From NCBI RefSeq assembly GCF_030684315.1, contig NC_081365.1:47911205-47975204 (forward strand): DNA of 64,000 nucleotides. The letters are read 5' to 3'. The translations under genes were made by a program, and so were the position numbers. Source of the stretch: Stegostoma tigrinum (Eukaryota). Within the stretch, counting starts at the first letter, position 1. Each line of letters starts with the position of its first letter. The notes beneath the pieces are model-generated. The model did no database searches. It was not told where the DNA came from and saw nothing but the letters and a program-made list of their open reading frames with translations. Of this stretch, positions 3,601 to 37,927 are shown piece by piece.

Positions 3601-4504
3601 AAATGGGATATATTTTTTAAAAATTCTTGAAGAAAATGTGAGGATGACATCAAACTATTGCAGCCAGCAATGAGTGCTTCATGGGTAGAGGTATGGCAAA
3701 TAATCTTTGTGGATTTTCCCTTGAGATCTTCTCATAAGGACAGAATTTCAAATATTGTAATTATGTCTTATTTAAAGGTTCCCTTTACTTTCCTCATTAC
3801 AGCTATCCTAAGTACATGGGACAAAAAATTGTTATGCATTTACTTTTGGGGATGTGGTTTGCAATCACATACCACTTGTCCTTGTTGCCATGGAAGGAGG
3901 CAGTATGGGAATCAACAGAATGATTTTAGCAAGTTGCACAGTGCATTTTGCTGATTGATTTCACACACAATAAGGGGGCTGGTTTCAATTAGATTGTTGC
4001 ACTTTGAAACAACCTCTGCCTTTTAAATTCACAAAATGTGCAGCCTCTTAACTGTTCTTTTGACCATAGTATGGCTGTGCCTGCATAAAATTCTGATTGT
4101 GGATATTTCAGCAATAGTAATGATGTTGAATGTCAAGAGGAGACAATTTGATTGTGTTTTGTTGGAATTGGTTATTGGATGATACCTTGGTTGTGTTATG
4201 TCACTTACCGCTAATCAACCCGTGACTGAATGCCATCAGATCTTGCTAGTTCTGTAGTCTCAGTTTGGCATTGTGACATCTGGCAGTCTTAGACAGTAGC
4301 AGTGGTGCTACCAAATTACTTGTTCATAATGGCCGCTGAAGTTCCTCACCCAGAGTATGTTCTCAGTGCTATTTTCAAAGGTGTCCAATGTGGAGGAATG
4401 CTGATTCATCAGCTTGAAGGGTTGAGAGCGATGTTGGGGGTTGTACTCAGTAAAATGCTTCCTTGCCTATATTTGATGTTGTCCAAAGTCACACAACACC
4501 ATGT

Positions 4505-5241
4505 ATACTGCATCCACTGTACCCGGTGTGGCTCCCTCTACATTGGGGAAACCAAGCGGAGGCTTGGGGACCGCTTTGCAGAACACCTCCGCTCAGTTCG
4601 CAACAAACAACTGCACCTCCCAGTCGCAAACCATTTCCACTCCCCCTCCCATTCTTTAGATGACACGTCCATCATGGGCCTCCTGCAGTGCCACAATGAT
4701 GCCACCCGAAGGTTGCAGGAACAGCAACTCATATTCCGCCTGGGAACCCTGCAGCCTAATGGTATCAATGTTGACTTCACCAGTTTCAAAATCTCCCCTT
4801 CCTCCAGCGCATCCCAAAACCAGCCCAGTTCGCCCCCTCCCCCCACTGCACCACACAACCAGCCCAGCTCTTCCCCTCCACCCACTTTATCCCAAAACCA
4901 GTCCAACCTGTCTCTGCCTCCCTAATTTGTTCTTCCTCTCACCCATCCCTTCCTCCCACCCCAAGCCGCACCCCCAACTACCTACTAACCTCATCCCACC
5001 TCCTTGACCTGTCTGTCTTCCCTGGACTGACCTATCCCCTCCCTACCTCCCCACCTATACTCTCCTCTCCACCTATCTTCTTTTCTCTCCATCTTCGGTC
5101 CGCCTCCCCCTCTCTCCCTATTTATTCCAGAACCCTCACCCCATCCCCCTCTCTGATGAAGGGTCTAGGCCCGAAACGTCAGCTTTTGTGCTCCTGAGAT
5201 GCTGCTTGGCCTGCTCTGTTCATCCAGCCTCACATTTTATT
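4505..5241 (+). mobile_element. Penelope-like element, 5'-truncated single arm (GIY-YIG endonuclease + 3' UTR)
   Basis: VYCIHCTRCGSLYIGETKRRLGDRFAEH...EQQLI...NGIN; hammerhead core 5153-5180; 7-bp duplication ACCATGT (4498-4504 / 5242-5248); inserted into an older small palindromic element. Confidence 0.9.
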
Positions 5242-5650
5242 ACCATGTTATAGCCCAACAGTTTTCTTCAGGGGATGAAGGGGCAGTGTTTCAACAGCTT
5301 GTGATTTCAGATAAACCTGTTGGACTGTAACTTGGTGTCGTGTGACTTCTGACCTTATTCGCCCAAGTCTAACACTGGGACCGCCACATCATATATTTGA
5401 TGTTGTGTTGGCACATTAGGGAAGGGAGAAGCACCAAAAAGACAAGCACTAAGAAGTTGGACAGGGTGAGTGATTTCTATTTAATTGTGAGTGCTGTGGA
5501 TAAAGATGTCAGTAAGAAGGATTTATGTGTTGCCCTTTTTTGTTGAATAATAACCAGGGGGATTCTGTGAAGTGAAATCTTAATTAGATGTGGCAGTGGT
5601 GAATGGCAGGCCTGTAGTGGTCAAAGAAAGCAACTTCATTAAAAACAGAG

Positions 5651-8836: not shown

Positions 8837-10411
8837 CAAAGGGACTGCTAATGGTGAGTAAAGAAAAAAAGCATTATAAATATTGAGAGGCTGAAAATGG
8901 TGGCATGCAAAATAATTTTGCTAACTTTATACAGGCATGACAGGACTTTGACATAACTGTACAGAAAGCAATTAGGAAAACACTTTTAACACCATTTACC
9001 AATTTCATTGCCAATATTTTCTTGAGCTATGAAAGGATATACTTTCATAGGAGTGAGTGCAATGGAACTTCACTAAACTGAGTTCTGGTATAAGGGGATT
9101 ACTCTCTGAGGAGAACCAACTAGTCTACACCTATATTCTCTTGTATTTTGGAAAATGAAAGCTACCTAACTACAATAATTTAAATTCCCAAGAGCCTGGG
9201 CAAGATAGATGATGGGCCAATGCTTTACAAAGCTTCTCTTGGCTGTGGAGTTTAGAAGTAAGTATCACAGTCTGAGAATAAGGGGTTGGTCACTTGGGAC
9301 TGAGAATGAAATAAATTACATTATTTAGTATCTCGAGATAATATGGGTTAGTTAGTTGAGACAAAAGGTAAACTGTGGTATTATAGAATAATGCAGCAGG
9401 TTTGAGGACTAAATAACCTGCTCCTAATCTATTTCTTACCTTTTTTACAGAAACACACAATATAGAAGAATGTCATACTGCCTGTGGTTGTGATTTAGTT
9501 CAGCTATCCAATTAGTTCCACATCTTGGCCTTTCTCCCATAGGCTTTCAAGAATTTATTTGAAAATTAATATTAATCTACTCTTTCCTCTGTTTTTAAGC
9601 TCATTATATAAACTGTGTCCTTCTATTACTAGAAATGTTTTCTCCTACACTATTTGATGAAATTTCTGTAAAGTCCAACCAATCTAATGATGTCACACAA
9701 TGGTGGTGAAAAGAGGAGTCTAGGTTGAGATCTTGATGGAAACAGATGTGTCATTGTTGTTCCCTGGCCAATCTTAAGTTACTATATTAAACTAGCCAAT
9801 GTTGATTGTATCTATTGCTAGTGTGCTATTGCTATCATTAAGGCAGGTGGTGCTCTAGTTAAAACTGATCAACGGTTGATCCTGTATTACTGTTAGCCAA
9901 ATGGTCGCTTGGACTAAATATAGAAAAGAGGATCGGTAGCAGTACAGTGCACATAGCATGTTAACAATGGTGAATAAAGACCATAACATCTAACAGAAAA
10001 TAAATTTTGGAAGTTAAGAGTTTGCTGCTTAAAATACATTGTCTCTTAAAGAATACCTAGTTAGATGGCACCTGCAAGTGCTTGAGCAAACAAGTAATTA
10101 GTGGAGTTGTGTCAGAAACAAGGCACTTCAGACTATAACTATCATTCAAACGAAATATGAGGCACAGAAGAACCAGCGTGAGATTTGGTATTCAACCGCC
10201 AATTTTGGACTTTTGTGAAGAAAGTTTAAAATCCCTGTTGGCAAGTAGAGAATCGTTAAATTAATGATGCTAAAGACCAAGTCATGAACACTAAGAATTA
10301 AAGAAGGGATCAGAGATAATGGGAACTGCAGATGCTGGAGATTCCAAGATAATAAAATGTGAGGCTGGATGAACACAGCAGGCCAAGCAGCATCTCAGGA
10401 GCACAAAAGCT

Positions 10412-10439
10412 GACGTTTCGGGCCTAGACCCTTCATCAG
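10412..10439 (-). ncRNA. Minimal type I hammerhead ribozyme motif in PLE 3' region
   Basis: CTGATGA-aGGGtctaggCCC-GAAA-C-GTC core with palindromic ACGT stem III, as known for PLE-encoded minimal hammerheads. Confidence 0.75.
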
Positions 10440-10663
10440 AGAGGGGGATGGGGGGAGGGAACTGGAATAAATAGGGAGAGAGGGGGAGGCGGACCGAAGA
10501 TGGAGAGTAAAGAAGATAGGTGGAGAGAGTGTAGGTGGGGAGGTAGGGAGGGGATAGGTCAGTCCAGGGAAGACGGACAGGTCAAGGAGGTGGGATGAGG
10601 TTAGTAGGTAGCGGGGGGTGCGGCTTGGGGTGGGAGGAAGGGATGGGTGAGAGGAAGAACCGG

Positions 10664-12129
10664 TTAGGGAGGCAGAGACAGGTTGGACTGGTTTTGGGAT
10701 GCAGTGGGTGGGGGGGAAGAGCTGGGCTGGTTGTGTGGTGCAGTGGGGGGAGGGTACGAACTGGGCTGGTTGAGGGATGCAGTAGGGGAAGGGGAGATTT
10801 TGAAACTGGTGAAGTCCACATTGATACCATATGGCTGCAGGGTTCCCAGGCGGAATATGAGTTGCTGTTCCTGCAACCTTCGGGTGGCATCATTGTGGCA
10901 GTGCAGGAGGCCCATGATGGACATGTCATCAAGAGAATGGGAGGGGGAGTGGAAATGGTTGGCGACTGGGAGGTGCAGTTGTTTTTTGCGAACTGAGCGG
11001 AGGTGTTCTGCAAAGCGGTCCCCAAGCCTCCACTTGGTTTCCCCAATGTAGAGGAAGCCGCACCGGGTACAGTGGATGCAGTATACCACATTGGCAGATG
11101 TGCAGGTGAACCTCTGCTTGATGTGGAATGTCATCTTGGGGCCTGGGATGGGGGTGAGGGAGGAGGTGTGGGGACAAGTGTAGCATTTCCTGCGGTTGCA
11201 GGGGAAGGTGCCGGGTGTGGTGGGGTTGGAGGGCAGTGTGGAGCGAACAAGGGAGTCACGGAGAGAGTGGTCTCTCCGGAAAGCAGACAGGGGAGGGGAT
11301 GGAAAAATGTCTTGGGTGGTGGGGTCGGATTGTAAATGGCGGAAGTGTCGGAGGATAATGCGTTGTATCCGGAGGTTGGTAGGGTGGTGTGTGAGAACGA
11401 GGGGGATCCTCTTGGGGCGGTTGTGGCGGGGGCGGGGTGTGAGGGATGTGTCGCGGGAAATGCGGGAGACGCGGTCAAGGGCGTTCTCGATCACCGTGGG
11501 GGGAAAGTAGCGGTCCTTAAAGAACTTGGACATCTGGGATGTGCGGGAGTGGAATGTCTTGTCGTGGGAGCAGATGCGGCGGAGGCGGAGGAATTGGGAA
11601 TAGGGGATGGAATTTTTGCAGGAGGGTGGGTGGGAGGAGGTGTATTCTAGGTAGCTGTGGGAGTCGGTGGGCTTGAAATGGACATCAGTTACAAGCTGGT
11701 TGCCTGAGATGGAGACTGAGAGGTCCAGGAAGGTGAGGGATGTGCTGGAGATGGCCCAGGTGAACTGAAGGTTGGGGTGGAAGGTGTTGGTGAAGTGGAT
11801 GAACTGTTCGAGCTCCTCTGGGGAGCAAGAGGCGGCGCCGATACAGTCATCAATGTACCGGAGGAAGAGGTGGGGTTTGGGGCCTGTGTAGGTGCGGAAG
11901 AGGGACTGTTCCACGTAACCTACAAAGAGGCAGGCATAGCTGGGGCCCATGCGGGTGCCCATGGCCACCCCTTTAGTCTGTAGGAAGTGGGAGGAGTCAA
12001 AAGAGAAGTTGTTGAGTGTGAGGACGAGTTCAGCTAGGCGGATGAGAGTGTCGGTGGAGGGGGACTGGTCGGGCCTGCGGGACAGGAAGAAGCGGAGGGC
12101 CTTGAGGCCATCTCCATGCGGAATGCAGG
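10664..12129 (-). CDS. PLE polyprotein, partial RT + GIY-YIG endonuclease (about 488 codons open; the ORF track's N-terminal ~22 aa come from flank)
   Basis: ORF 10664-12196; element sequence ends near 12129, judged by comparison with the older copy at ~63120. Confidence 0.9.
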
Positions 12130-12974
12130 AGTACTTTTGTTCGCAGTAGGTGCAGTGACCATGAAGCAGAGCTACTGTAGCAAAGTCAGGAACCATAGAA
12201 TTAAGTTACACTGGACTGCAGTATCAAGAATGTCATTGTCCTTTTATCACATTAAATGAGCCCAATTTAAAAGCTAGAAGGGACAGAGTCTAACAGAAAA
12301 AGATAATTTGAAGTCTTTTAAATCAATAAGAATGGGCGATTAAAGCACAATTTTGCCAAGAAATGTTTTTAAGGCTGCAACCATAAAGCTGTTTTGGAAA
12401 GTAATGCAAGGGGATATGCATTGTACTTCAGGCTGTGAAAGTTGGGAAAGTGTCCACTTTGTCAATGATAAAATGGAAAATCCTTAACTTAGCCGCAGAA
12501 AATGCAGAAAACTGCCACTTAACCTGCAGACGGCAGGAGACCACTATTTTGGGGGTAAAGGTGTGGGAAATCCACCAGTAAGCTGTATTGTTATTTAACA
12601 AAATTTAAAGCTTTATTAGAGAAAAAATACAGCATTGCTACAATATATGATTTATAGCTTTAAAAGAAGAAAATAATACAACTTTTTAAAGGTAAACAAG
12701 ATAAAACAGCATTATATAATGTAGACTATAAAATCTATTTAGCAGAGACAGAAACGCAGCAGTGTTTAGATAACACCGAAGACATCTTGAAAGGATGAAT
12801 CATAAATAATTACACCAAGAAGACATGGCAGGAGATATAATAATATTGTAGAGATTTAATTTCAGAGATGCACTAAATAAAACTCAATACTGGATATCTT
12901 AGTGAAAACAACACTTACGGCGCAGTTTTTCAGCATTAAATACTAAATCTGTAGTTGATTAAGTAAATACACTA

Positions 12975-13395: not shown

Positions 13396-15220
13396 CATAG
13401 AACATAGAACAGTACAGCACAGAACAGGCCCTTCAGCCCACGATGTTGTGCCGACCATTGATCCTCATGTATGCACCCTCAAATTTCTGTGACCATATGC
13501 ATGTCCAGCAGGCTCTTAAATGTCCCCAATGACCTTGCTTCCACAACTGCTGCTGGCAACGCATTCCATGCCCTAACAACTCTCTATGAGAAGAACCCGC
13601 CTCTGACATCCCCTCTATACTTTCCTCCAACCAGCTTTAAACTATGACCCCTCGTGCTAGCCATTTCTGCCCTGGGAAATAGTCTCTGGCTATCAACTCT
13701 ATCTATGCCTCTCATTATCTTGTATACCTCAATTAGATCCCCTCTCCTCCTCCTTTTCTCCAATGAAAAGAGACCGAGCTCAGTCAACCTCTCTTCATAA
13801 GATAAGCCCTCCAGTCCAGGCAGCATCCTGGTAAACCTCCTCTGAACCCTCTCCAAAGCATCCACATCTTTCCTATAATAGGGCGACCAGAACTGGACGC
13901 AGTATTCCAAGTGTGGTCTAACCAAAGTTTTATAGAGCTGCAACAAGATCTCACGACTCTTAAACTCAATCCCCCTGTTAATGAAAGCCAAAACACCATA
14001 TGCTTTCTTAACAACCCTGTCCACTTGGGTGGCCATTTTAAGGGATCTATGTATCTGCACACCAAGATCCCTCTGTTCCTCCACACTGCCAAGAATCCTA
14101 TCCTTAATCCTGTACTCAGCTTTCAAATTCGACCTTCCAAAATGCATCACCTCACATTTATCCAGGTTGACCTCCATCTGCCACCTCTCAGCCCATCTCT
14201 GCATCCTGTCAATGTCCCGCTGCAGCCTACAACAGCCCTCTATACTGTCAACGAACCCTCCAACCTTTGTGTCATCTGCAAACTTGCTGACCCATCCTTC
14301 AATCCCCTCATCCAAGTCATTAATAAAAATTACAAACAGTAGAGGCCCAAGGACAGAGCCCTGTGGAACCCCACTCACCACTGACTTCCAGGCAGAATAT
14401 TTTCCTTCTACTACCACTCGCTGTCTTCTGTTGGCCAGCCAATTCTGTATCGAGACAGATAAGTTCCCCTGTATCCCATTCCTCCTACCTTCTGAATGAT
14501 CCTACCATGGGGAACCTTATCAAATGCCTTACTGAAGTCCATATACACCACATCCACAGCTCGACCCTCATCAACTTTTCTAGTCACATCCTCAAAAAAC
14601 TCGATAAGGTTTGTGAGGCATGACCTACCCCTCACAAAGCCGTGTTGACTGTATTTGATTAAGCCATGCTCTTCCAGATGGTCATAAATCCTATCCCTCA
14701 GAATCCTTTCTAACACTTTGCAGACGACAGACGTGAGACTTACTGGTCTATAATTGCTGGGGATTTCCCTACTTCCTTTCTTGAAGAGAGGAATTACATT
14801 TGCCTCTCTCCAGTCCTCAGGTACGACTCCAGTGGAGAGCGAGGATGCAAAGATCTTTGCAAGTGGCGAAGCAATTGCATTTCTCGCTTCCCAAAGCAGC
14901 CGAGGACAAATCTGGTCCAGGCCTGGTGACTTGTCAATCTTAATGTTTGACAAAATTTTCAGCACATCAGCTTCCTCTATCTCTATCCATTCCAGCATGC
15001 ACACCTGCTCTTCAAAGGTTTCATTCACTACAAACTTCGTTTCTTTCGTAAAGACAGAAGCAAGAAACTCATTTAGGGCTTCCCCTACCTCCTCAGACTC
15101 CACACACAAGTTCCCTATGCTATCCCTGATCGGTCCTACTCTTCCTTTGACCATTCTCTTGTTCCTCACATAAGTGTAATTTGCCTTTGTGTTTTCCCTG
15201 ATTCCTTCTGCCAAGCCTTT
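13396..15220 (-). mobile_element. Young CR1 LINE, 5'-truncated (ORF2 RT region, one frameshift near 14480)
   Basis: ORFs 14411-15232 and 13584-14417: NYRPVSLTS, SQHGF, DFSKAFDKV, GVPQGSVLGP, FADDTK, LEYCVQFW; (TTCTATG)n-type 3' tail at ~13396-13410. Confidence 0.95.
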
Positions 15221-16406
15221 AGAAAATTTCATTAATTATCTCCACAGATCAGTGGAAAACTTTGACTATAAAGCTTTGAAATCAGATTTGTATGAAACTG
15301 AATAATTTTAGAATCATTGATAAATTTTTGTCACATCTATTAAGGTCCTAAGAAAATTTGACTTTGGGAAAGGCTATTCAAAATGTGGTGGAAGGAACTC
15401 TGAGAGGAAAAGGAAAACCTCAATACAGGAGAGAAACAGAATCCACCCATATAGTATAAACACTCTGCAGGTACACTTGACAAGGCATCACAAAGAGTTA
15501 GTGCTGTGAATAAATGGTGCAAGTTGTACCAAGTTATGATATACATATGCTACCTCTGTAAAACTATAGGTCACTTCCTGAGGACGTGCAGAAGGAGGAC
15601 CCAGTTTCAAAGTTGCAAAAAGCTCAAATTCTTACTCATTTTAATGCTACAGAAACAGTAGGAAAGAGCATTCATAAAGTAAATTAGTAATTTAACTGAC
15701 TGAACTTTGACAGAATCTATTTGCGTTAATTGCGATCTCATTATTTTCTATCTTGATACAGGGGTCAGTCTCACTGTCTCATCAGTTGTCTCAAATCTAT
15801 AATGGATAGGATTATTGATAACTTACCTGATTGTATTTGCATTGCTGACCATATCATTGTCATAGGTGAGTTAAAGGCAGAGTATGAACATAATTTTCAG
15901 CTGCTGGTGACAACAATTCAATTCAATTCAAAGGACTAACATTTAACACAGTCAAATCAACATCAACCTGATAAACCTCTTTGGATCCATTTACTTTGAG
16001 CACGGAATCCATTTGATTCCAATTAAGATCAAGGATAATTAATAAATGCTGACCGCACAGGATGAAGAACATCTCCAAAGTTGCCTTGAATCTTTTTAAA
16101 TTTGCTATAGCTATACAATCAGCACCTTGCAGAAAAGGTTTTATCTGCTGGGGGATTAGCTCAAGATAGACATCTCCTATATGTGGGAATACAACTACCA
16201 ATTTGTCTTCACTTCTCTCAAGTAGGTTCTTTCAGCAAAATCTTTCTTATTGTAATACAATTACCCTAGAAAAGACATGATTCTCAAATGCAATGCATTG
16301 CAAAAAGTTTGCAAGACAAAAGACCTATTGCCTTGATTCTAAACCCTGTCGTTTGTACAGTATACATGTCTAGGAAGGTGGTATTATTGCCAAACAGGTA
16401 ATTCAG

Positions 16407-18015
16407 AGATAATAAAATGTGAGGCTGGATGAACACAGCAGGCCAAGCAGCATCTCAGGAGCACAAAAGCTGACGTTTCGGGCCTAGACCCTTCAACAGA
16501 GAGGGGGATGGGGGGAGGGAACTGGAATAAATAGGGAGAGAGGGGGAGGCGGACCGAAGATGGAGAGTAAAGAAGATAGGTGGAGAGGGTGTAGGTGGGG
16601 AGGTAGGGAGGGGATTGGTCAGTCCAGGGAAGACGGACAGGTCAAGGAGGTGGGATGAGGTTAGTAGGTAGCTGGGGGTGCGGCTTGGGGTGGGAGGAAG
16701 GGATGGGTGAGAGGAAGAACCGGTTAGGGAGGCAGAGACAGGTTGGACTGGTTTTGGGATGCAGTGGGTGGGGGGGAAGAACTGGGCTGGTTGTGTGGTG
16801 CAGTGGGGGGAGGGGATGAACTGGGCTGGTTTAGGGATGCAGTAGGGGAAGGGGAGATTTTGAAACTGGTGAAGTCCACATTGATACCATATGGCTGCAG
16901 GGTTCCCAGGCGGAATATGAGTTGCTGTTCCTGCAACCTTCGGGTGGCATCATTGTGGCACTGCAGGAGGCCCATGATGGACATGTCATCAAGAGAATGG
17001 GAGGGGGAGTGGAAATGGTTTGCGACTGGGAGGTGCAGTTGTTTGTTGCGAACTGAGCGGAGGTGTTCTGCAAAGCGGTCCCCAAGCCTCCGCTTGGTTT
17101 CCCCAATGTAGAGGAAGCCGCACCGGGTACAGTGGATGCAGTATACCACATTGGCAGATGTGCAGGTGAACCTCTGCTTAATGTGGAATGTCATCTTGGG
17201 GCCTGGGATGGGGGTGAGGGAGGAGGTGTGGGGACAAGTGTAGCATTTCCTGCGGTTGCAGGGGAAGGTGCCGGGTGTGGTGGGATTGGAGGGCAGTGTG
17301 GAGCGAACAAGGGAGTCACGGAGAGAGTGGTCTCTCCGGAAAGCAGACAGGGGAGGGGATGGAAAAATGTCTTGGGTGGTGGGGTCGGATTGTAAATGGC
17401 GGAAGTGTCGGAGGATAATGCGTTGTATCCGGAGGTTGGTAGGGTGGTGTGTGAGAACGAGGGGGATCCTCTTGGGGCGGTTGTGGCGGGGGCGGGGTGT
17501 GAGGGATGTGTCGCGGGAAATGCGGGAGACGCGGTCAAGGGCGTTCTCAATCACCGTGGGGGGAAAGTTGCGGTCCTTAAAGAACTTGGACATCTGGGAT
17601 GTGCGGGAGTGGAATGTCTTATCGTGGGAGCAGATGCGGCGGAGGCGGAGGAATTGGGAATAGGGGATGGAATTTTTGCAGGAGGGTGGGTGGGAGGAGG
17701 TGTATTCTAGGTAGCTGTGGGAGTCGGTGGGCTTGAAATGGACATCAGTTACAAGCTGGTTGCCTGAGATGGAGACTGAGAGGTCCAGGAAGGTGAGGGA
17801 TGTGCTGGAGATGGCCCAGGTGAAGTGAAGGTTGGGGTGGAAGGTGTTGGTGAAGTGGATGAACTGTTCGAGCTCCTCTGGGGAGCAAGAGGCGGCGCCG
17901 ATACAGTCATCAATGTACCGGAGGAAGAGGTGGGGTTTGGGGCCTGTGTAGGTGCGGAAGAGGGACTGTTCCACGTAACCTACAAAGAGGCAGGCATAGC
18001 TGGGGCCCATGCGGG
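16407..18015 (-). mobile_element. Young Penelope-like retroelement, 5'-truncated single arm (short 3' end)
   Basis: Near-identical to the 10310-12129 copy; 428-aa open frame 16724-18010; hammerhead core mutated to CTGTTGA; inserted into an old SINE. Confidence 0.95.
16724..18010 (-). CDS. PLE polyprotein fragment (RT C-terminal half + GIY-YIG)
   Basis: RYIDD, CNRRKCYTCPH, VVYCIHCTRCGFLYIGETKRRLGDRFAEH; no stops. Confidence 0.9.
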   Translation of the reverse strand: MGPSYACLFVGYVEQSLFRTYTGPKPHLFLRYIDDCIGAASCSPEELEQFIHFTNTFHPNLHFTWAISSTSLTFLDLSVSISGNQLVTDVHFKPTDSHSYLEYTSSHPPSCKNSIPYSQFLRLRRICSHDKTFHSRTSQMSKFFKDRNFPPTVIENALDRVSRISRDTSLTPRPRHNRPKRIPLVLTHHPTNLRIQRIILRHFRHLQSDPTTQDIFPSPPLSAFRRDHSLRDSLVRSTLPSNPTTPGTFPCNRRKCYTCPHTSSLTPIPGPKMTFHIKQRFTCTSANVVYCIHCTRCGFLYIGETKRRLGDRFAEHLRSVRNKQLHLPVANHFHSPSHSLDDMSIMGLLQCHNDATRRLQEQQLIFRLGTLQPYGINVDFTSFKISPSPTASLNQPSSSPPPTAPHNQPSSSPPPTASQNQSNLSLPP

Positions 18016-18275
18016 AGACCCAGGTATTGTTCTGGGGACCCGAGTCAAAATCCCACCATGGCTGATGGAGGAATTTAAATTCAATAAAAACTGCAACTAA
18101 TCAAGCTAAGAGAATAACCATGAAACCGTTGTTAATAGTCTAATGTCCTTTAGGGAAGGAAACTACCATCATTAGCTGGTCTGGTTGACATGTTACTCCA
18201 AACCCACAGCAATATTGTTGACTGTTAACTGTTAACAATTAGGGATGGGCAATAAATGCTAGCATTGCCAGCGAA
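18016..18275 (+). mobile_element. Old SINE-like repeat (5' part left of the PLE at ~16375-16406)
   Basis: Shared blocks AATCCCACCATGG, AATGTCCTTTAGGGAAGGAAA, GGGCAATAAATGCT also seen near 40390-41120 and 57340-57500. Confidence 0.5.
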
Positions 18276-18764: not shown

Positions 18765-19011
18765 CATAGATAATGAAGGTGAAGATCTTCTCACGGTTGA
18801 TTAGATTTTGGCCAGAGCCACAGTGAACAGTTGAAATTAGAAACTGCCAGAGATGATCAACTGTGAGACTTATATAAGAACATTATTTATGCCATGGCCT
18901 GACAGTATGAAATAAGTGTATGAGACAATTTGTTCATAAGAAGGACAAACTTGGTATATTGTGCCAGTTCATCTTCAAGAGCAAACAATATCAAAAGCAT
19001 TATGCCAAGAA

Positions 19012-20863
19012 AACAAAATGTGAGGCTGGATGAACACAGCAGGCCAAGCAGCATCTCAGGAGCACAAAAGCTGACGTTTCGGGCCTAGACCCTTCATCAG
19101 AGAGGGGGATGGGGAGAGGGAACTGGAATAAATAGGGAGAGAGGGGGAGGCGGACCGAAGATGGAGAGTGAAGAAGATAGGTGGAGAGAGTATAGGTGGG
19201 GAGGTAGGGAGGGGATAGGTCAGTCCAGGGAAGACGGACAGGTCAAGGAGGTGGGGTGAGGTTAGTGGGTAGATGGGGGTGCGGCTTGGGGTGAGAGGAA
19301 GGGATGGGTGAGAGGAAGAACCGGTTAGAAAGGCAGAGACAGGTTGGACTGGTTTTGGGATGCAGTGGGTGGAGGGGAAGAGCTGGGCTGGTTGTGTGGT
19401 GCAGTGGGGGGAGGGGACGAACTGGGCTGGTTTAGGGATGCAGTAGGGGAAGGGGAGATTTTGAAACTGGTGAAGTCCACATTGATACCATATGGCTGCA
19501 GGGTTCCCAGGCGGAATATGAGTTGCTGTTCCTGCAACCTTCGGGTGGTATCATTGTGGCAGTGCAGGAGGCCCATGATGGACATGTCATCTAGAGAATG
19601 GGAGGGGGAGTGGAAATGGTTTGCGACTGGGAGGTGCAGTTGTTTGTTGCGAACTGAGCGGAGGTGTTCTGCAAAGCGGTCCCCAAGCCTCCGCTTGGTT
19701 TCCCCAATGTAGAGGAAGCCGCACTGAGTACAGTGGATGCAGTATACCACATTGGCAGATGTGCAGGTGAACATCTGCTTAATATGGAATGTCATCTTGG
19801 GGCCTGGGATAGGGGTGAGGGAGGAGGTGTGGGGGCAAGTGTAGCATTTCCTGCAGTTGTAGGGGAAGGTGCCGGGTGTGGTGGGGTTGGAAGGCAGTGT
19901 GGAGCGAACAAGGGAGTCACGGAGAGAGTGGTCTCTCCGGAAAGCAGACAGGGCTGGGGATGGAAAAATGTCTTGGGTGGTGGGGTCGGATTGTAAATGG
20001 CGGAAGTGTCGGAGGATGATGCGTTGTAAGCCCCAAGATGACATTCCACATTAAGCAGAGGTTCACCTGCACATCTGCCAATGTGGTATACTGCATCCAC
20101 TGTACTCGGTGCGGCTTCCTCTACATTGGGGAAACCAAGCGGAGGCTTGGGGACCGCTTTGCAGAACACCTCCGCTCAGTTCGCAACAAACAACTGCACC
20201 TCCCAGTCGCAAACCATTTCCACTCCCCCTCCCATTCTCTAGATGACATGTCCATCATGGGCCTCCTGCACTGCCACAATGATACCACCCGAAGGTTGCA
20301 GGAACAGCAACTCATATTCCGCCTGGGAACCCTGCAGCCATATGGTATCAATGTGGACTTCACCATTTTCAAAATCTCCCCTTCCCCTACTGCATCCCTA
20401 AACCAGCCCAGTTCGTCCCCTCCCCCCACTGCACCACACAACCAGCCCAGCTCTTCCCCCCCACCCACTGCATCCCAATACCAGTCCAACCTGTCTCTGC
20501 CTCCCTAACCGGTTCTTCCTCTCACCCATCCCTTCCTCCCACCCCAAGCCGCACCCCCATCTACCCACTAAGCTCATCCCACCTCCTTGACCAGTCCGTC
20601 TTCCCTGGACTGACCTATCCCCTCCCTACCTCCCCACCTATACTCTCTCCACCTATCTTCTTCACTCTCCATCTTCGGTCCGCCTCCCCCTCTCTCCCTA
20701 TTTATTCCAGTTCCCTCTCCCCATCCCCCTCTCTGATGAAGGGTCTCCGCCCGAAACGTCAGCTTTTGTGCTCCTGAGATGCTGTTTGGCCTGCTGTGTT
20801 CATCTAGCCTCACATTTTGTTATCTTGGAATTCTCCAGCATCTGCAGTTCCCATTATCTCTGA
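19012..20863. mobile_element. Two-armed inverted PLE insertion (minus arm 19012-20028, plus arm 20030-20863)
   Basis: Both arms encode GIY-YIG + 3' UTR + hammerhead (19073-19100 minus; 20733-20760 plus); 14-bp TSD CATTATGCCAAGAA at 18998-19011 and 20864-20877; inserted in the Gypsy integrase region. Confidence 0.95.
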
Positions 20864-21611
20864 CATTATGCCAAGAATATGAGATCCATATTATACCAGA
20901 AACACATGGCTATTGTACACACAAGTCAGCTAGCACATGAATCTGTGCACTGGGCAGGGATAATTCAAGGTATGCAATGACTTGCATGTGACTAATGCCA
21001 AATACATCAAGCCTAGCATTGAAGGGAACCTCTTTATCCACATGAAGTTCCATCCATTCCTTGGATAAAAGTAGCAACAGTACTATTCAGAAATGGGAAT
21101 CTTACATCTTTGTGATGAATTACTTCTCTCAATTTCCCATGGTTCAACAACATAACAGTGCAATAAGCATTACCATTGCTGATACATTCAATATTATTTT
21201 CAGTTTATTTGGTATTACAGATCATATACAGTCTAACAATGGACCACAGCACATTGGCAAATCATTTCAAGATGTACACTAAGTAGGGGGTAATGCATAT
21301 TGTATTATCACCTATCTACTGATGCTCATGTGGTCTAGCAAAACATACAATTCATACTATTAAATCAATAATCATTATTGGACCATCCGCAAAGAAAGAT
21401 TTTCACATTACATTACTGTATGTTGTGCAACGCCAATGGAGAGGGGATTACCATCTATAGCATAATTTATACTCAGAAGGCAAACATAAACCCCACTTTG
21501 CAGAGCAAATAAAACACTCTTCTTGAAAGACAAATGAGAATTAAAGAGATGGAAGAGATAGGAGCAAGTAAATAACTAGCACAAATGTGCACTGAACAGA
21601 CTGTGTGAATT

Positions 21612-25482: not shown

Positions 25483-28439
25483 CTGTCAAGATAAAAGAAA
25501 GTATGATTGTGGTTAGTTGTTCCTTCAAGAAATGGGGCAACATTCATATTTACATACGATTGTACACTAATTTGGACTGCAAGATGTCATTGGTGATTAC
25601 CACTTGATGGGGAGATGCAGGACATTAATTTGTAACTATAATACTTCAGTACAAATATATAAAATCATACATGTTTTCGTCTATTATTATATGCTTGTTT
25701 TGTATTCCACTTCTCTAAAACCTCTGCACGGTCTCACTTTACAGAGTTAACAGGAGGTCTCCAGAAATATTGCTTTTGATGCAATGTGTGGTTTGTAAAA
25801 GCATTCAGCAGCTTTTGAAACAAAAGAGCACCTAGTTAACTGCAGGAAAAGCAAGTTATCATTAGTTACACTAAATGCATCTTAACAGTGTATTCTATGC
25901 TTACATGCAGAATCTAAACTCCTTTCCTGCTAATTACGGGTGGTGTGCAAGGTAGGGGAATTAAATTGAGGCCAATGTCTCAGTTTAATCCTGTTATAAT
26001 ATATACCATCACTTTCACTTTGATATGAAAAGATCTCTGAAGTGTATCAAAATGAAAATAGTGGTGTAACTTGGAAGTGAGTTCCTGATTTGACTCCTGA
26101 AATCAATGAAGTTTGGAGGCGTGAGAAACTGTCTGGTAGGAAATCTCACACCAGTTAAAGTTCACAGCAAGTGTTTGCATAACCTTTTCATAACGTTGTA
26201 ATTTAGTTTTCAAAATGCTTGTATATTTTTCAAGTGTAAGTGTACAATGATTTTCACTCAAAATGGAAGTGGGTCTCTCCCCTGCTCTTTTCCCAAAATT
26301 AAAAATGAGCTTTCAAGCATGCTGGAACTCAACTCCAAATCATCAACCATAACAGGGGTTTGAAAGCTGTACATTACTTGTTAACTGGTTTCACATCATC
26401 ACCAGCTGTATAATGGCAGTCCAGGAGTACAGCAGTACCTAAATAGATCTAATTACACCTTGGCAATCAGTTTCTCCCCCATTTTCCTCCCCCCAGTTCA
26501 ACTTTCAAAATTTCAATGATGACATGGCCTGAAATATGGCACAGTTGATAGCTGGACAAATTTCACACTGAAAGCTACAGAAAAGCAACTGTCATGCACA
26601 ATTGCTTTGAAGTTATGATTTATAATGTGTATTTTTTCTGAATGGTTAAGGTTGGTGGATGGTGGATGGTGTGGGTTGGTAGGTGTGAAGCACAACTGCA
26701 TCACATTAGTGATAAAATTGAAAGCAGCTTCTGACTTTATCAATGAATATAGCAGAGAATCTACCGGTGGGTATATCGCTGATTGCCAAAACAAACCACT
26801 ACGGTCAGTGAAGTCAATGAGAATAGATAAGACATCATTTCCAAAGTCCACATATGCGCCAATTTCATTTTCAAAGCCTATCTCTATAGGAAAGTCAGAT
26901 TTTCCACAGGACCGTTTTTGGTAGGTTTGAGTGAATGGGAGATGTCGGGTCCAGCGGGAAGTGGGGTGCCAGGTTTGTGTGGGAAAGGGACGGATGTTGA
27001 GTCCTGGGGTTCATGTCAGGTTTGTTGGAGGGAGAGAGGGAATCGAGTCCAGCAAAGGGGAGAGGGCCCCAGATACAATACCTTGTCAATCAAGTTTTGT
27101 CCAATCAGTTTCTCCCCCATTTTCCTCCCCCCTCTACAGGAAGAGAGGGGTCATGTTAGGTTCTGGGAGGAATGAAGGGTCCTAGTGAGCTCCAGTTGTA
27201 CGAGCAATGGGGTAAGGTGAGGCTCAGTTTCAATGAACTGACCAATAAGGGCAAGGATAACAAACACCTTGTTCACTATCCTATCTATCTGTAACTTCAC
27301 CATTAAGGAACTATGAACCTGTACCCCAAGGTCTCTTTGTTTTCCAGGAGTTAGACTAATTTTATAGACTAACATCTCCTGAGTAACTATTTATTTAATT
27401 TCATTGAAACTTCCCAAACTCTCCAATTTAAAAGAACACTTTTGGAGGGTTCCAGATGTGCATGTAATTGCCCAGTCGAATCTGCAATTTCAGAGTCTCT
27501 TCAAAGTGTCCTACTTTGGGACTTGGGCAGCGCTGTAATGCACAACCTTCATCTATGTTGCAGGAAAATAACTGTTTGGCCATCAGAAAACTGGGTCAAT
27601 GTTGATTGAGGGATTTATAGTGGTCAGAACACCAAGTTTATCTTCTCTGTTCTAGTCGAAAATGGTAACATATGATCTCTTATGCTCTCCTGAGAGACCA
27701 GAAAGAATGACTAATGTAAAATAGGGCATCTCTGACAGTGCTGGATTCCCTTAATACTGCACTGATATATCAGCCTAGTCTATGTCCATAACTCCAAAAA
27801 CTTATGATACACTGCCAAATGGTAACAACTGAACCATGGCTTATTGTGAGACAGAAGTGGGTGGGTTGGTAAAATGAATGTCTCAGGATTCAGACTTTTA
27901 ACACTTTAACCTCCTACCTCCATCCAAAACCATGCACTTTTTGAAGTTAAAATTCCTTCAATGCATCTAGACATTTCTTGAGATTTTCATTTGAAATGCT
28001 ATACTTCAATTCTTGAGATCTTTGAATTTTTAAAAATAATCACACTTTAGGTTTATAGTTTAGTTTAGTATTTTGTCTGAATAATGAAAATGCATCAATA
28101 TGAAAAATTAGTTCTGTTTTTCTCTCCAGATGAGACCTGACCTGTTGAGAATTCCCAGCATTTTTCACTTCTATTTCAGTATTAATGGTATTTTGTCTAT
28201 GTACACACATGATGTGTTAGTACTTACTACAAGAAAACAAAGGGTATTGTTTCAGAAATTTAAAATCGTTGTTATTGTAATGTGGCTGCATGTTTGCTTA
28301 TGTGACATTTATAGAAGCAGGCAATGAGAGAATGAGTTATTTTGCACTCTTGGTATGACTTGTTTGCTGGGTTGACTTGTTATGAAGCACGCCATCCTTT
28401 AAAGTCCATTACATTTTATGGATTTTAAGGTAATTACAA

Positions 28440-29270
28440 GGTCATAGAGTTGTACAGCATGGAAACAGACACTTTGGTCCAACTCGTCCACGCCAACCAG
28501 ATATCCTAAATTAATCCAGTCCTTTTTGTCAGCATTTGCCCCATATCCCTCTAAACTATTCTTATTCGTATACCCATCCAGATGCTCTTTAAATGTTGTA
28601 ATTGTCCCAGCCTCCATCACTTCCTGTGGCAGCTCATTCCATACACACATCACCCTCTGGGTGAAAATGCTGCCCCTTGGGTGGCTTTTAAATCTTTCTC
28701 CTCTTACTTTAAACCTATACCCTCTGGTTTTGGACTCCTCTACTCTGGGGAAAAGACCTTGGCTGCTAACCATATTGATGCCCCTCATTGTTTTATAAAT
28801 ATCTATAAGGTCACTCCTCAGCCTCTGATGCTCGAGGGAAATTAGCCGCAGCCTATTCAGCCTCTCTCTGTAGCTCAAACCTTCCAATCCTGGCAACATC
28901 CTTCTAAGTATTTTCAAGTTTCACAACATCTTTCCTATAGCAAGGAGACCAGAATTCAATGCAGTAATCCTAAGAGGTCTAACCAATGTCCTGTACAGCC
29001 ACATCATGACATCCCAAATCCTCTAGTCAATGCACTGACCAATAAAGGCAAGCATAACAAACACCTTGTTCACTATCCTATCTATCTGTAACTTCACCAT
29101 TAAGGAACTATGAACCTGTACCCCAAGGTCTTTTTGTTCAGCAACACTCCTCAGGACCCTATCATTAAGTGTATCGATACTGGCCTGTTGTACCTTAGCA
29201 AGATGCAATACCTCACATTTATCCAAATTAAGCTCCAACTGCTACTCCTCAGACCTTTGGCCCATCAATT
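28440..29270 (-). mobile_element. CR1 LINE 3' fragment
   Basis: LPGLEGLSYRERL, VWNELP, DKCEVLH motifs in minus ORFs 28399-28917 and 29023-29238. Confidence 0.85.
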
Positions 29271-37234: not shown

Positions 37235-37496
37235 TGGTCTATTGTGTAATCCAGGTTTTGTTAAAAGGGCAAATGCAAACTACGAGGCCCAAGCAAAGAC
37301 AGCTCAATAATGTCAGAGCTATCCTCCATGGATTCACTTCCCGCACAATCTACATTGATAGGCACCGCTGGCATGCTTCTCATCACTTATAATCGTGTTT
37401 CCCCAACGCCAATGATTCATTGCAATTCGTTCCACGGATTGCAGTTATTAAACACTCCTTGAACGTCTCGAACGACATTGAACACACAATACTTAC

Positions 37497-37844
37497 CGAT
37501 CACGTTCACGATAATGTCCTTGGTGAACTGGTCTCCATTCCAATTTGTCACTGTGCAGGAGTATGTCCCGGAATCATGCGATGTCACATTCTGGATGGAG
37601 AGCGAATGGTTCGGGTAGATTTGTGACCGGTGCAAGTAGCCGCTGAACCAATGGGTATTCCATTTCTCTTCTTCTGACATTAACTGGACGATGGAGCGCC
37701 GGGTGTTGGTGCTCACATACTTCCACTCCACTGTGTGCACCTGGTCAGTGATACTGGTGAATGACACTTCCAGGAATATGTCCCTATTAACTCTTCCAGT
37801 GACAACCTTGGGGCTGGTTCCGGCGGCCGGTGTTGGCAGGACAG
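37497..37844 (-). CDS. Ig-superfamily receptor exon 2: V-type Ig domain (CD2/SLAM/CEACAM N-domain-like)
   Basis: Acceptor CCATCTCTTTCAG, donor TCG|GTAAGT, 348 nt phase 1-1; VEW (C strand), NHSLSIQNVTSHDSGTYSC (E-F strands); B-strand Cys absent (DIFLEV). Confidence 0.92.
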
Positions 37845-37927
37845 CTGAAAGAGATGGTACACAAGGTTAGGCAACTGCTCCATTCCTGTGGGACACAGTG
37901 GCAACAAGAGGCGCCCGCATGAATTAC

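Follow-up and report, generated by a model that had tools for sequence, protein, structure and literature searches.

The insertion at 19012-20863 of the window (the whole stretch of DNA analysed, 64,000 nt long, from a genome of 3.2 Gb) is a pair of head-to-head truncated copies of a Neptune-type Penelope-like element within a 14-bp target duplication. One copy stops short and the other carries a tail, a combination that recurs in every such pair with a target-site duplication (TSD) around it in the genome sample. The best explanation, held at a probability of about 0.6, is that the target is cut on both strands by a protein dimer, leaving free ends that prime one RNA at two windows about 36 nt apart. 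Of its parts, dual priming at two windows is very likely, and it is probable that both freed target ends prime on the same RNA molecule.

Anatomy of the insertion

All relative positions are counted from an anchor at window position 20814. The features of the insertion are as follows.

18998..19011, + strand: left TSD copy, 14 bp, CATTATGCCAAGAA, letter for letter the same as 20864-20877
19012..20028, − strand: left arm, a 5′-truncated element copy with its short end at 19012
19073..19100, − strand: minimal hammerhead core of the left arm, read from the sequence
20020..20508, + strand: ORF remnant with the GIY-YIG endonuclease region
20030..20863, + strand: right arm, a 5′-truncated element copy with its long end at 20863
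20733..20760, + strand: minimal hammerhead core of the right arm, with a predicted cut after 20760 (−54 from anchor 20814)
20777..20784, + strand: stem around the short start window, 5′ strand (predicted only)
20817..20827, + strand: short start window, where partner arms stop, placed from TSD inner edges
20822..20863, + strand: tail, 42 nt, in the right arm only, terminating within the long start window
20836..20843, + strand: stem, 3′ strand (predicted only)
20864..20877, + strand: right TSD copy, 14 bp, CATTATGCCAAGAA

The two arms are 98% complementary over an 802-nt overlap, and the left arm ends 42 nt short of the right arm's end. The left arm (minus strand) codes for the 3′ part of the ORF with the endonuclease and also carries the pLTR. 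Upstream of the anchor, the short-ended arm reaches 1010 nt and the tailed arm 785 nt.

Identity of the element

Judged from sequence features listed in PMC8557442, this is an endonuclease-bearing (EN+) Penelope-like element of either the Neptune or the Nematis type. A single frame of 1030 aa at L100 contains a reverse transcriptase (RT) match (PF00078, E 9.5e-6, slightly under the Pfam cut-off) and a GIY-YIG region, as in 20020-20508, that matches PF01541 (E 2.9e-4, slightly under the curated cut-off); these matches are weak but specific. Several marks of EN+ Penelope-like elements are present, namely one ORF with RT and a GIY-YIG endonuclease at the C terminus, a minimal hammerhead motif that is apparent in the pLTR, and partial tandems or pLTRs (tandems at L140 and L144) together with an inverted truncated copy, a 30-40-nt tail (median 36 nt, range 24-52), and a TSD. 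By eye, protein P0001 has the ADKGG and VVYCIHCTRCGFLYIG motifs, which are EN+ Penelope-like features according to PMC8557442. The same source gives a CX2-5CxxC motif in the linker that connects RT to endonuclease as the mark of Neptune and Nematis, and it is present in P0001 as CNRRKCYTC. The Penelope/Poseidon clade, which is without this zinc-finger motif, was thereby rejected. The narrower label of Neptune-type appears apt, given the linker motif and the report of Neptune from fishes (PMC4209133). A sequence search of the PDB with P0001 gave no match at E<=1.

Strict pairing of long and short ends

The survey covered 116 stretches, each 10 kb long and set at a round-number position, that is 1.16 Mb of arbitrary genome, with targeted additions of 20 stretches at long young copies and 20 at read-through copies; arms were sought with a tail-free anchor. 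The ends of the arms are bimodal, the 256 arms in the arbitrary stretches comprising 119 short, 113 long, 16 decayed or truncated, and 7 intermediate ones, with 1 at an edge. Adjacent minus/plus arms formed 116 pairs (78 arbitrary, 28 targeted, and 10 from the window), and 75 of these passed the TSD test, which asks for a TSD at both arm ends, vs 3/300 shuffled partners. Long/short was the automatic call for 71 of the 75, and the remaining four proved long/short by inspection, three having slightly shifted short ends and L033 a long end with an internal deletion. Among the TSD-validated pairs from arbitrary stretches, 49/49 are long/short, with the long end on the left in 29 and on the right in 20. 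Of 14 further pairs picked by hand, 12 have a TSD and all 12 are long/short, which brings the TSD-flanked pairs together to 87/87. Both peaks of the histogram of end positions, opposed within pairs, had been anticipated in the initial annotation and are borne out. It had come across no long/long or short/short pair; the same holds for these 87 pairs, and one candidate stands against it among those without TSD.

The 41 pairs that failed the TSD test include eight of the same class. One is a misclassified long/short pair (L105), two are internal tandem units (L053 and L073), two join arms from different subfamilies (L064 and L084), and two have arms set apart by unexplained gaps (L107 and L129); those that are neither misclassified nor tandem units look like separate insertions. 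The last, L134, is short/short, 165 bp in length and devoid of a TSD, and is the sole candidate for a genuine exception to the rule. Even where all that is left of the partner arm is the final 10-13 nt of the tail (L025:9281 and L054:694), the long/short rule is kept.

In the window, the side of the long arm had been given correctly for all ten main-family pairs (5.7, 8.5, 19.9, 25.0, 30.1, 34.4, 37.2, 49.8, 54.7, and 55.8 kb), nine of which pass the TSD test; the pair at 30.1 kb shows 8 bp only. The pairs at 13.1, 18.6, and 21.7 kb have the asymmetry ascribed to them but are not members of the main family, those at 13.1 and 21.7 kb belonging to family C and that at 18.6 kb to family D. In family C, 9/10 TSD-flanked pairs are long/short, the tenth being assigned to no class; in family D, 3/3 pairs follow the rule, and in no case does the TSD score reach 10.

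Pairing this strict is incompatible with start sites chosen independently for the two arms, which would leave about half of the pairs same-class. A filter by selection or assembly, through which same-class pairs arise but vanish because they are more perfect palindromes, is extremely improbable. Long palindromes are unstable, and many lone arms without TSD exist, both of which such a filter would fit; against this, a difference of 36 nt at the outer edges would barely alter a stem of up to 1 kb, long and short pairs follow the rule alike, and tiny partner remnants of 10-50 nt are likewise of the opposite class.

Two internal start windows

The ends fall mostly at +5..+13 and +42..+53 from the anchor, with a median spacing of 36 nt. 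The earlier proposal of two reverse-transcription start regions, one per target strand, is backed by the pair counts and by in vitro data in PMC11167929. Where defined sites had been proposed, each start region is a window about 10 nt wide rather than one point. A rigid spacer between the two starts was ruled out, since end positions within a pair are uncorrelated (rho −0.02, n=55). The (A/G)TTATCT motif that had been noted at both ends is present in both windows of subfamily A as ATTATCT and of subfamily B as TATCT, but families C and D are without it; only in the main family do both windows have TTATCT in common, and a general role for it as start signal was dismissed.

The view of the long end as a 3′ terminus on a folded 3′ RNA is not supported. 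Neither arm end is the RNA 3′ terminus, because the element reads through into its ORF. At L053, L073, L101, and L140 the element sequence goes on beyond the long end, the ORF being entered about 36 nt after it at L140, and some TSD-flanked long ends, those of short pairs included, extend up to 10 nt into this ORF-ward continuation. At L140:1420-1545, an upstream ATG frame crosses both start windows, with one in-frame TGA at the long end before the start of the main ORF.

Both windows share microhomology with the target. With ends bearing extra bases left out, the mean in subfamily A is 1.74 nt at short ends (43/57 used) vs 0.73 nt in simulation, and 1.63 nt at long ends (38/57 used) vs 0.72 nt; the observed values were reached in 0/2000 simulations. 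The overlap of target and element at genomic ends is 1-6 nt. Microhomology at both windows suggests brief pairing of the primer end with the RNA.

Hammerhead and RNA structure

The core of the hammerhead, at 54-82 nt upstream of the anchor, is conserved across subfamily A arms and has a helix I of only 2 bp. Its layout, GAAACGUC/AG, matches the anole template as given in PMC11167929. Rfam yielded no match in the window at gathering scores, and only chance matches around the hammerhead. The stem of AGATGCTG and CAGCATCT put forward in the initial annotation does form in the predicted fold, but it is no more stable than shuffled sequences (z −0.53). Its 7-bp core shows no variation within subfamilies A and B and therefore gives no covariation signal; the flanking pair of subfamily B is retained in 10/20 common cases. 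At the corresponding position, family D carries a 9-bp stem, unrelated to this one, which encloses the short window and stops before the long one, and which is exact in 2/7 long arms. By way of this family D stem, the predicted structure around the short window may be conserved in position, a conclusion of moderate strength.

At two loci (L147:4291-4344 and L150:3845-3898), the cDNA passes to another template precisely where the hammerhead cut is predicted (−54), and among short pairs some cDNAs stop at the same point. These stops and jumps hint that cleaved RNA may serve as template in vivo; the AGCT palindrome at −54 could likewise favour joins there.

A probable shared template for both arms

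The lengths of the two arms go together. Both arms reach at most 95 nt from the anchor in 51 of the 75 pairs and both exceed 95 nt in 22, leaving 2 mixed (Fisher 5e-17); the arbitrary stretches alone give 38, 9, and 2. Within the 51 short pairs, the same holds for a division at 60 nt, with both arms at or below it in 13, both above it in 30, and 8 mixed (p 7e-6). No short-class arm goes past −90, and in many pairs both arms end at 80-90. We read −86 to −90 as the putative 5′ end of the transcript and −54 as the probable hammerhead cut, although the stop at −86 may reflect stalling of the RT in a C-rich tract rather than an end of the RNA.

The junctions between tandem mini-units differ between loci (26 mapped), so that a rare junction can mark a template. 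It is present in both arms in 7/9 insertions in which both arms cross it (L053, L073, L142, L151, L152, L155, and L161), and in one arm only at L143 and L148; at L143 and L156, a long arm is joined to a short arm. The distance between arms within a pair is half that of shuffled partners, a result equally expected from equal age. Sister arms are mutual nearest neighbours in 4/19 long pairs, a low score because the copies are too alike for their sources to be resolved.

Shared run-off classes and shared junctions together favour one RNA primed twice over two RNAs. Independent draws from the cell's pool of RNA would not yield them, and one RNA molecule is the simplest source of both arms. Set against this reading, two RNAs of one source locus would share junctions and subfamily too, and deletion at the centre of the palindrome after insertion could equalise the lengths of the arms.

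Closest to the initial annotation is an asymmetric dimer with one RNA per subunit, where the subunits differ in conformation such that one is directed to the short and the other to the long window. It would explain strict pairing without strand displacement, it agrees with the junctions found in a single arm at L143 and L148, and minimal hammerheads of Penelope-like elements have been proposed to act as dimers (PMC4209133). Its two RNAs would have to share a source, for instance by being paired via palindromic hammerheads, and in almost every insertion they would have to agree in 5′ end class as well as in the rare junction. As the target is without asymmetry and there is no sign of order, we consider this reading unlikely.

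Improbable as well is a form of twin priming in which the two strands prime in adjacent pLTR copies of a single tandem RNA. Tandem and read-through templates are known here (L053, L073, L157, and L161), and shared junctions would follow without displacement. However, a short arm paired with a long one is what it predicts when the 5′ pLTR is used, and mixed pairs amount to 2/75, many pairs having both arms at 80-90. Nor does it by itself explain the difference between the two windows.

Target site and order of priming

TSDs are 13-16 bp long in 57/75 pairs. Their flanks are T-rich at equal outward positions on both sides, with no difference in composition (p 0.77, 74 pairs), which is the expectation for two equivalent cuts. 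A cue in the target sequence that sets the side of the tail was ruled out by this likeness of the flanks over the 74 pairs.

Over the 75 pairs, the farther-reaching arm is the short-ended one in 39 and the long-ended one in 32. The tendency of short-ended arms in the window to run further (8/10) was lost in this genome-wide set. If the short window were always primed first, longer short-ended arms might result, and overall these are absent. The only hint of a priming order comes from the untargeted long pairs, in which the short-ended arm is longer in 10/13.

The reach of the arms bears also on a model with a single priming event, in which the cDNA folds back, primes itself, and has its second arm trimmed by the endonuclease to leave the tail on one side. 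PMC3846280 proposes self-priming, and PMC8557442 a resolution of the tail by way of the EN. Such a course would yield arms that are identical, being copied from a single template, and would leave a tail on one side. The tailed arm, however, should then always be the longer, and in 39/75 pairs the short-ended arm reaches further, as it does at 19012-20863 itself (1010 nt vs 785 nt for the tailed arm). Moreover, microhomology with the target is alike at short and long ends, and in vitro priming occurs at both sites (PMC11167929). Simple fold-back of one cDNA is excluded because either arm may be the farther-reaching one, and trimmed self-priming as a whole is very improbable.

Lone arms, of which the initial annotation makes no mention, are equally balanced. 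Of 154 short or long arms outside pairs, 122 are without TSD (62 short and 60 long); a direct TSD flanks 7 short and 3 long arms, too small a number for ordering events; 12 have a TSD across a gap, the partner being in most cases a remnant whose class is the opposite one; and 10 lie at an edge. In the window, lone arms are located at 2702-2806, 4503-5242, 10310-12134, and 16400-18034 (cited as 2.8, 5.2, 10.3, and 16.4 kb). Those without a detected TSD are as frequent as paired arms, with an even split between short and long, and may have arisen by target deletion in repair or by later loss of one arm. An ordered, asymmetric integration complex had been put forward. The asymmetry stands for each insertion; given symmetric flanks, no reliable difference in length between the arms, and an even split of lone arms, priming order is not shown.

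Proposed mechanism

With one RNA as the template of both arms, integration may proceed as follows. A two-fold symmetric protein dimer would make a staggered cut with nicks about 14-15 bp apart. One RNA would offer each window only once, such that one subunit would take the short and the other the long window, in either chromosome orientation. The RT that starts at the long window would displace the other cDNA while passing. Both RTs would head for the 5′ end of the RNA (about −86, or the hammerhead cut at −54) if the 5′ pLTR is used, and would run far into the ORF if a downstream pLTR is used. The two cDNA ends would be joined with little or no microhomology and then repaired; the overlap at arm-arm joins is mostly −4 to +8 nt. 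Cut geometry, pairing, and the shared template are read from the genome; we infer the dimer, the displacement, and the joining.

A fuller version, slightly short of even odds, has a symmetric dimer cutting 14-15 bp apart and a single RNA reverse-transcribed twice from sites that flank a position-conserved stem. The near-universal 30-40-nt tail would then be the RNA spacer between the active sites, and hammerhead-cut RNAs and circular monomers would likewise be primed twice in vivo.

Relation to known systems

In L1 twin priming, both target strands prime on one RNA, and the product is an inversion bounded by one TSD. There, the landing site of the second primer is upstream, and inverted and direct parts derive from non-overlapping RNA. 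The inversion within a single TSD is common to L1 and to the insertions described here. L1-type twin priming itself was rejected, as the arms at 19012-20863 overlap by 802 nt; in these insertions the starts of the arms are about 36 nt apart, and both arms are copies of one sequence.

EN+ Penelope-like elements are described with a one-sided tail of 30-40 bp and an inverted pLTR (PMC8557442 and PMC3846280), and Penelope of Drosophila virilis with a repeat of 34-37 bp (PMC2377424). The insertions share with the published elements an inverted 5′-truncated copy, a tail at one end, a single TSD around the unit, and partial tandems. They differ in the length of the TSD, 13-16 bp vs 8-10 bp in the rotifer examples given there, and in the constancy of the tail: in the accessible descriptions it is optional or often one-sided, with no counts of pairs, whereas it is one-sided in all TSD-flanked pairs here.

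The nearest experimental system is Poseidon of Anolis carolinensis, for which PMC11167929 describes two internal RT starts in vitro that bound the tail and lie downstream of the hammerhead. Both target strands are cut and extended with no difference between strands, a dimer is predicted, and product length is fixed by the 5′ end of the RNA. The strands are read separately, and hence pairing and the number of RNAs fall outside that assay. The two elements differ in clade, the ORF here bearing the linker zinc-finger motif. According to PMC11167929, the Poseidon start has no homology to the cut DNA and hammerhead cleavage plays no role, whereas genomic ends here overlap the target by 1-6 nt and the predicted cut is where some cDNAs end or switch template.

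The one-sided tail and the two internal starts are already known (PMC8557442 and PMC11167929), and what is added here is the quantified strict pairing together with three hints of a single RNA template. A literature search, made mostly outside subscription papers, found no published pair count or one-RNA test. In PMC11167929, the steps after the first priming in Penelope-like integration are left unvalidated; the shared run-off classes and junctions reduce the question of one or two RNAs to a single in vitro experiment. If true, the copying of one RNA twice from the two ends of a staggered cut would be unlike the pathways of R2 and L1, and would account jointly for the tail and the inverted structures.

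Tandem arrays and other sequence

Arrays of mini-units of 298-450 nt, each with one hammerhead, occur at L157:3489-6502, L161:3638-8001, L158, L160, L162, L073, and L053, with a junction that is particular to each locus and recurs up to ten times or more. Non-LTR retrozymes, which derive from Penelope-like elements, consist of tandem units of about 300 nt with one hammerhead each, as described in bioRxiv 10.64898/2026.07.22.740005 (see also PMC7229834). The tandem units at L073, L157, L158, L160, L161, and L162 resemble them, and the arrays are possibly rolling-circle copies of circular RNA. Unlike retrozymes, they finish in the same short/long pair and mark a shared template. At L114:4302-5900, a young copy lies within an older one at the short start window, flanked by a 13-bp duplication of element sequence, and is thus an element inserted into its own pLTR. 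Elsewhere in the window, 13584-15235 and 28399-28920 hold what we take to be remnants of another RT-coding element, CR1/L2-like by motifs, and an open frame at 37417-37866 (minus strand) resembles, by eye, an immunoglobulin V-type exon of a host gene.
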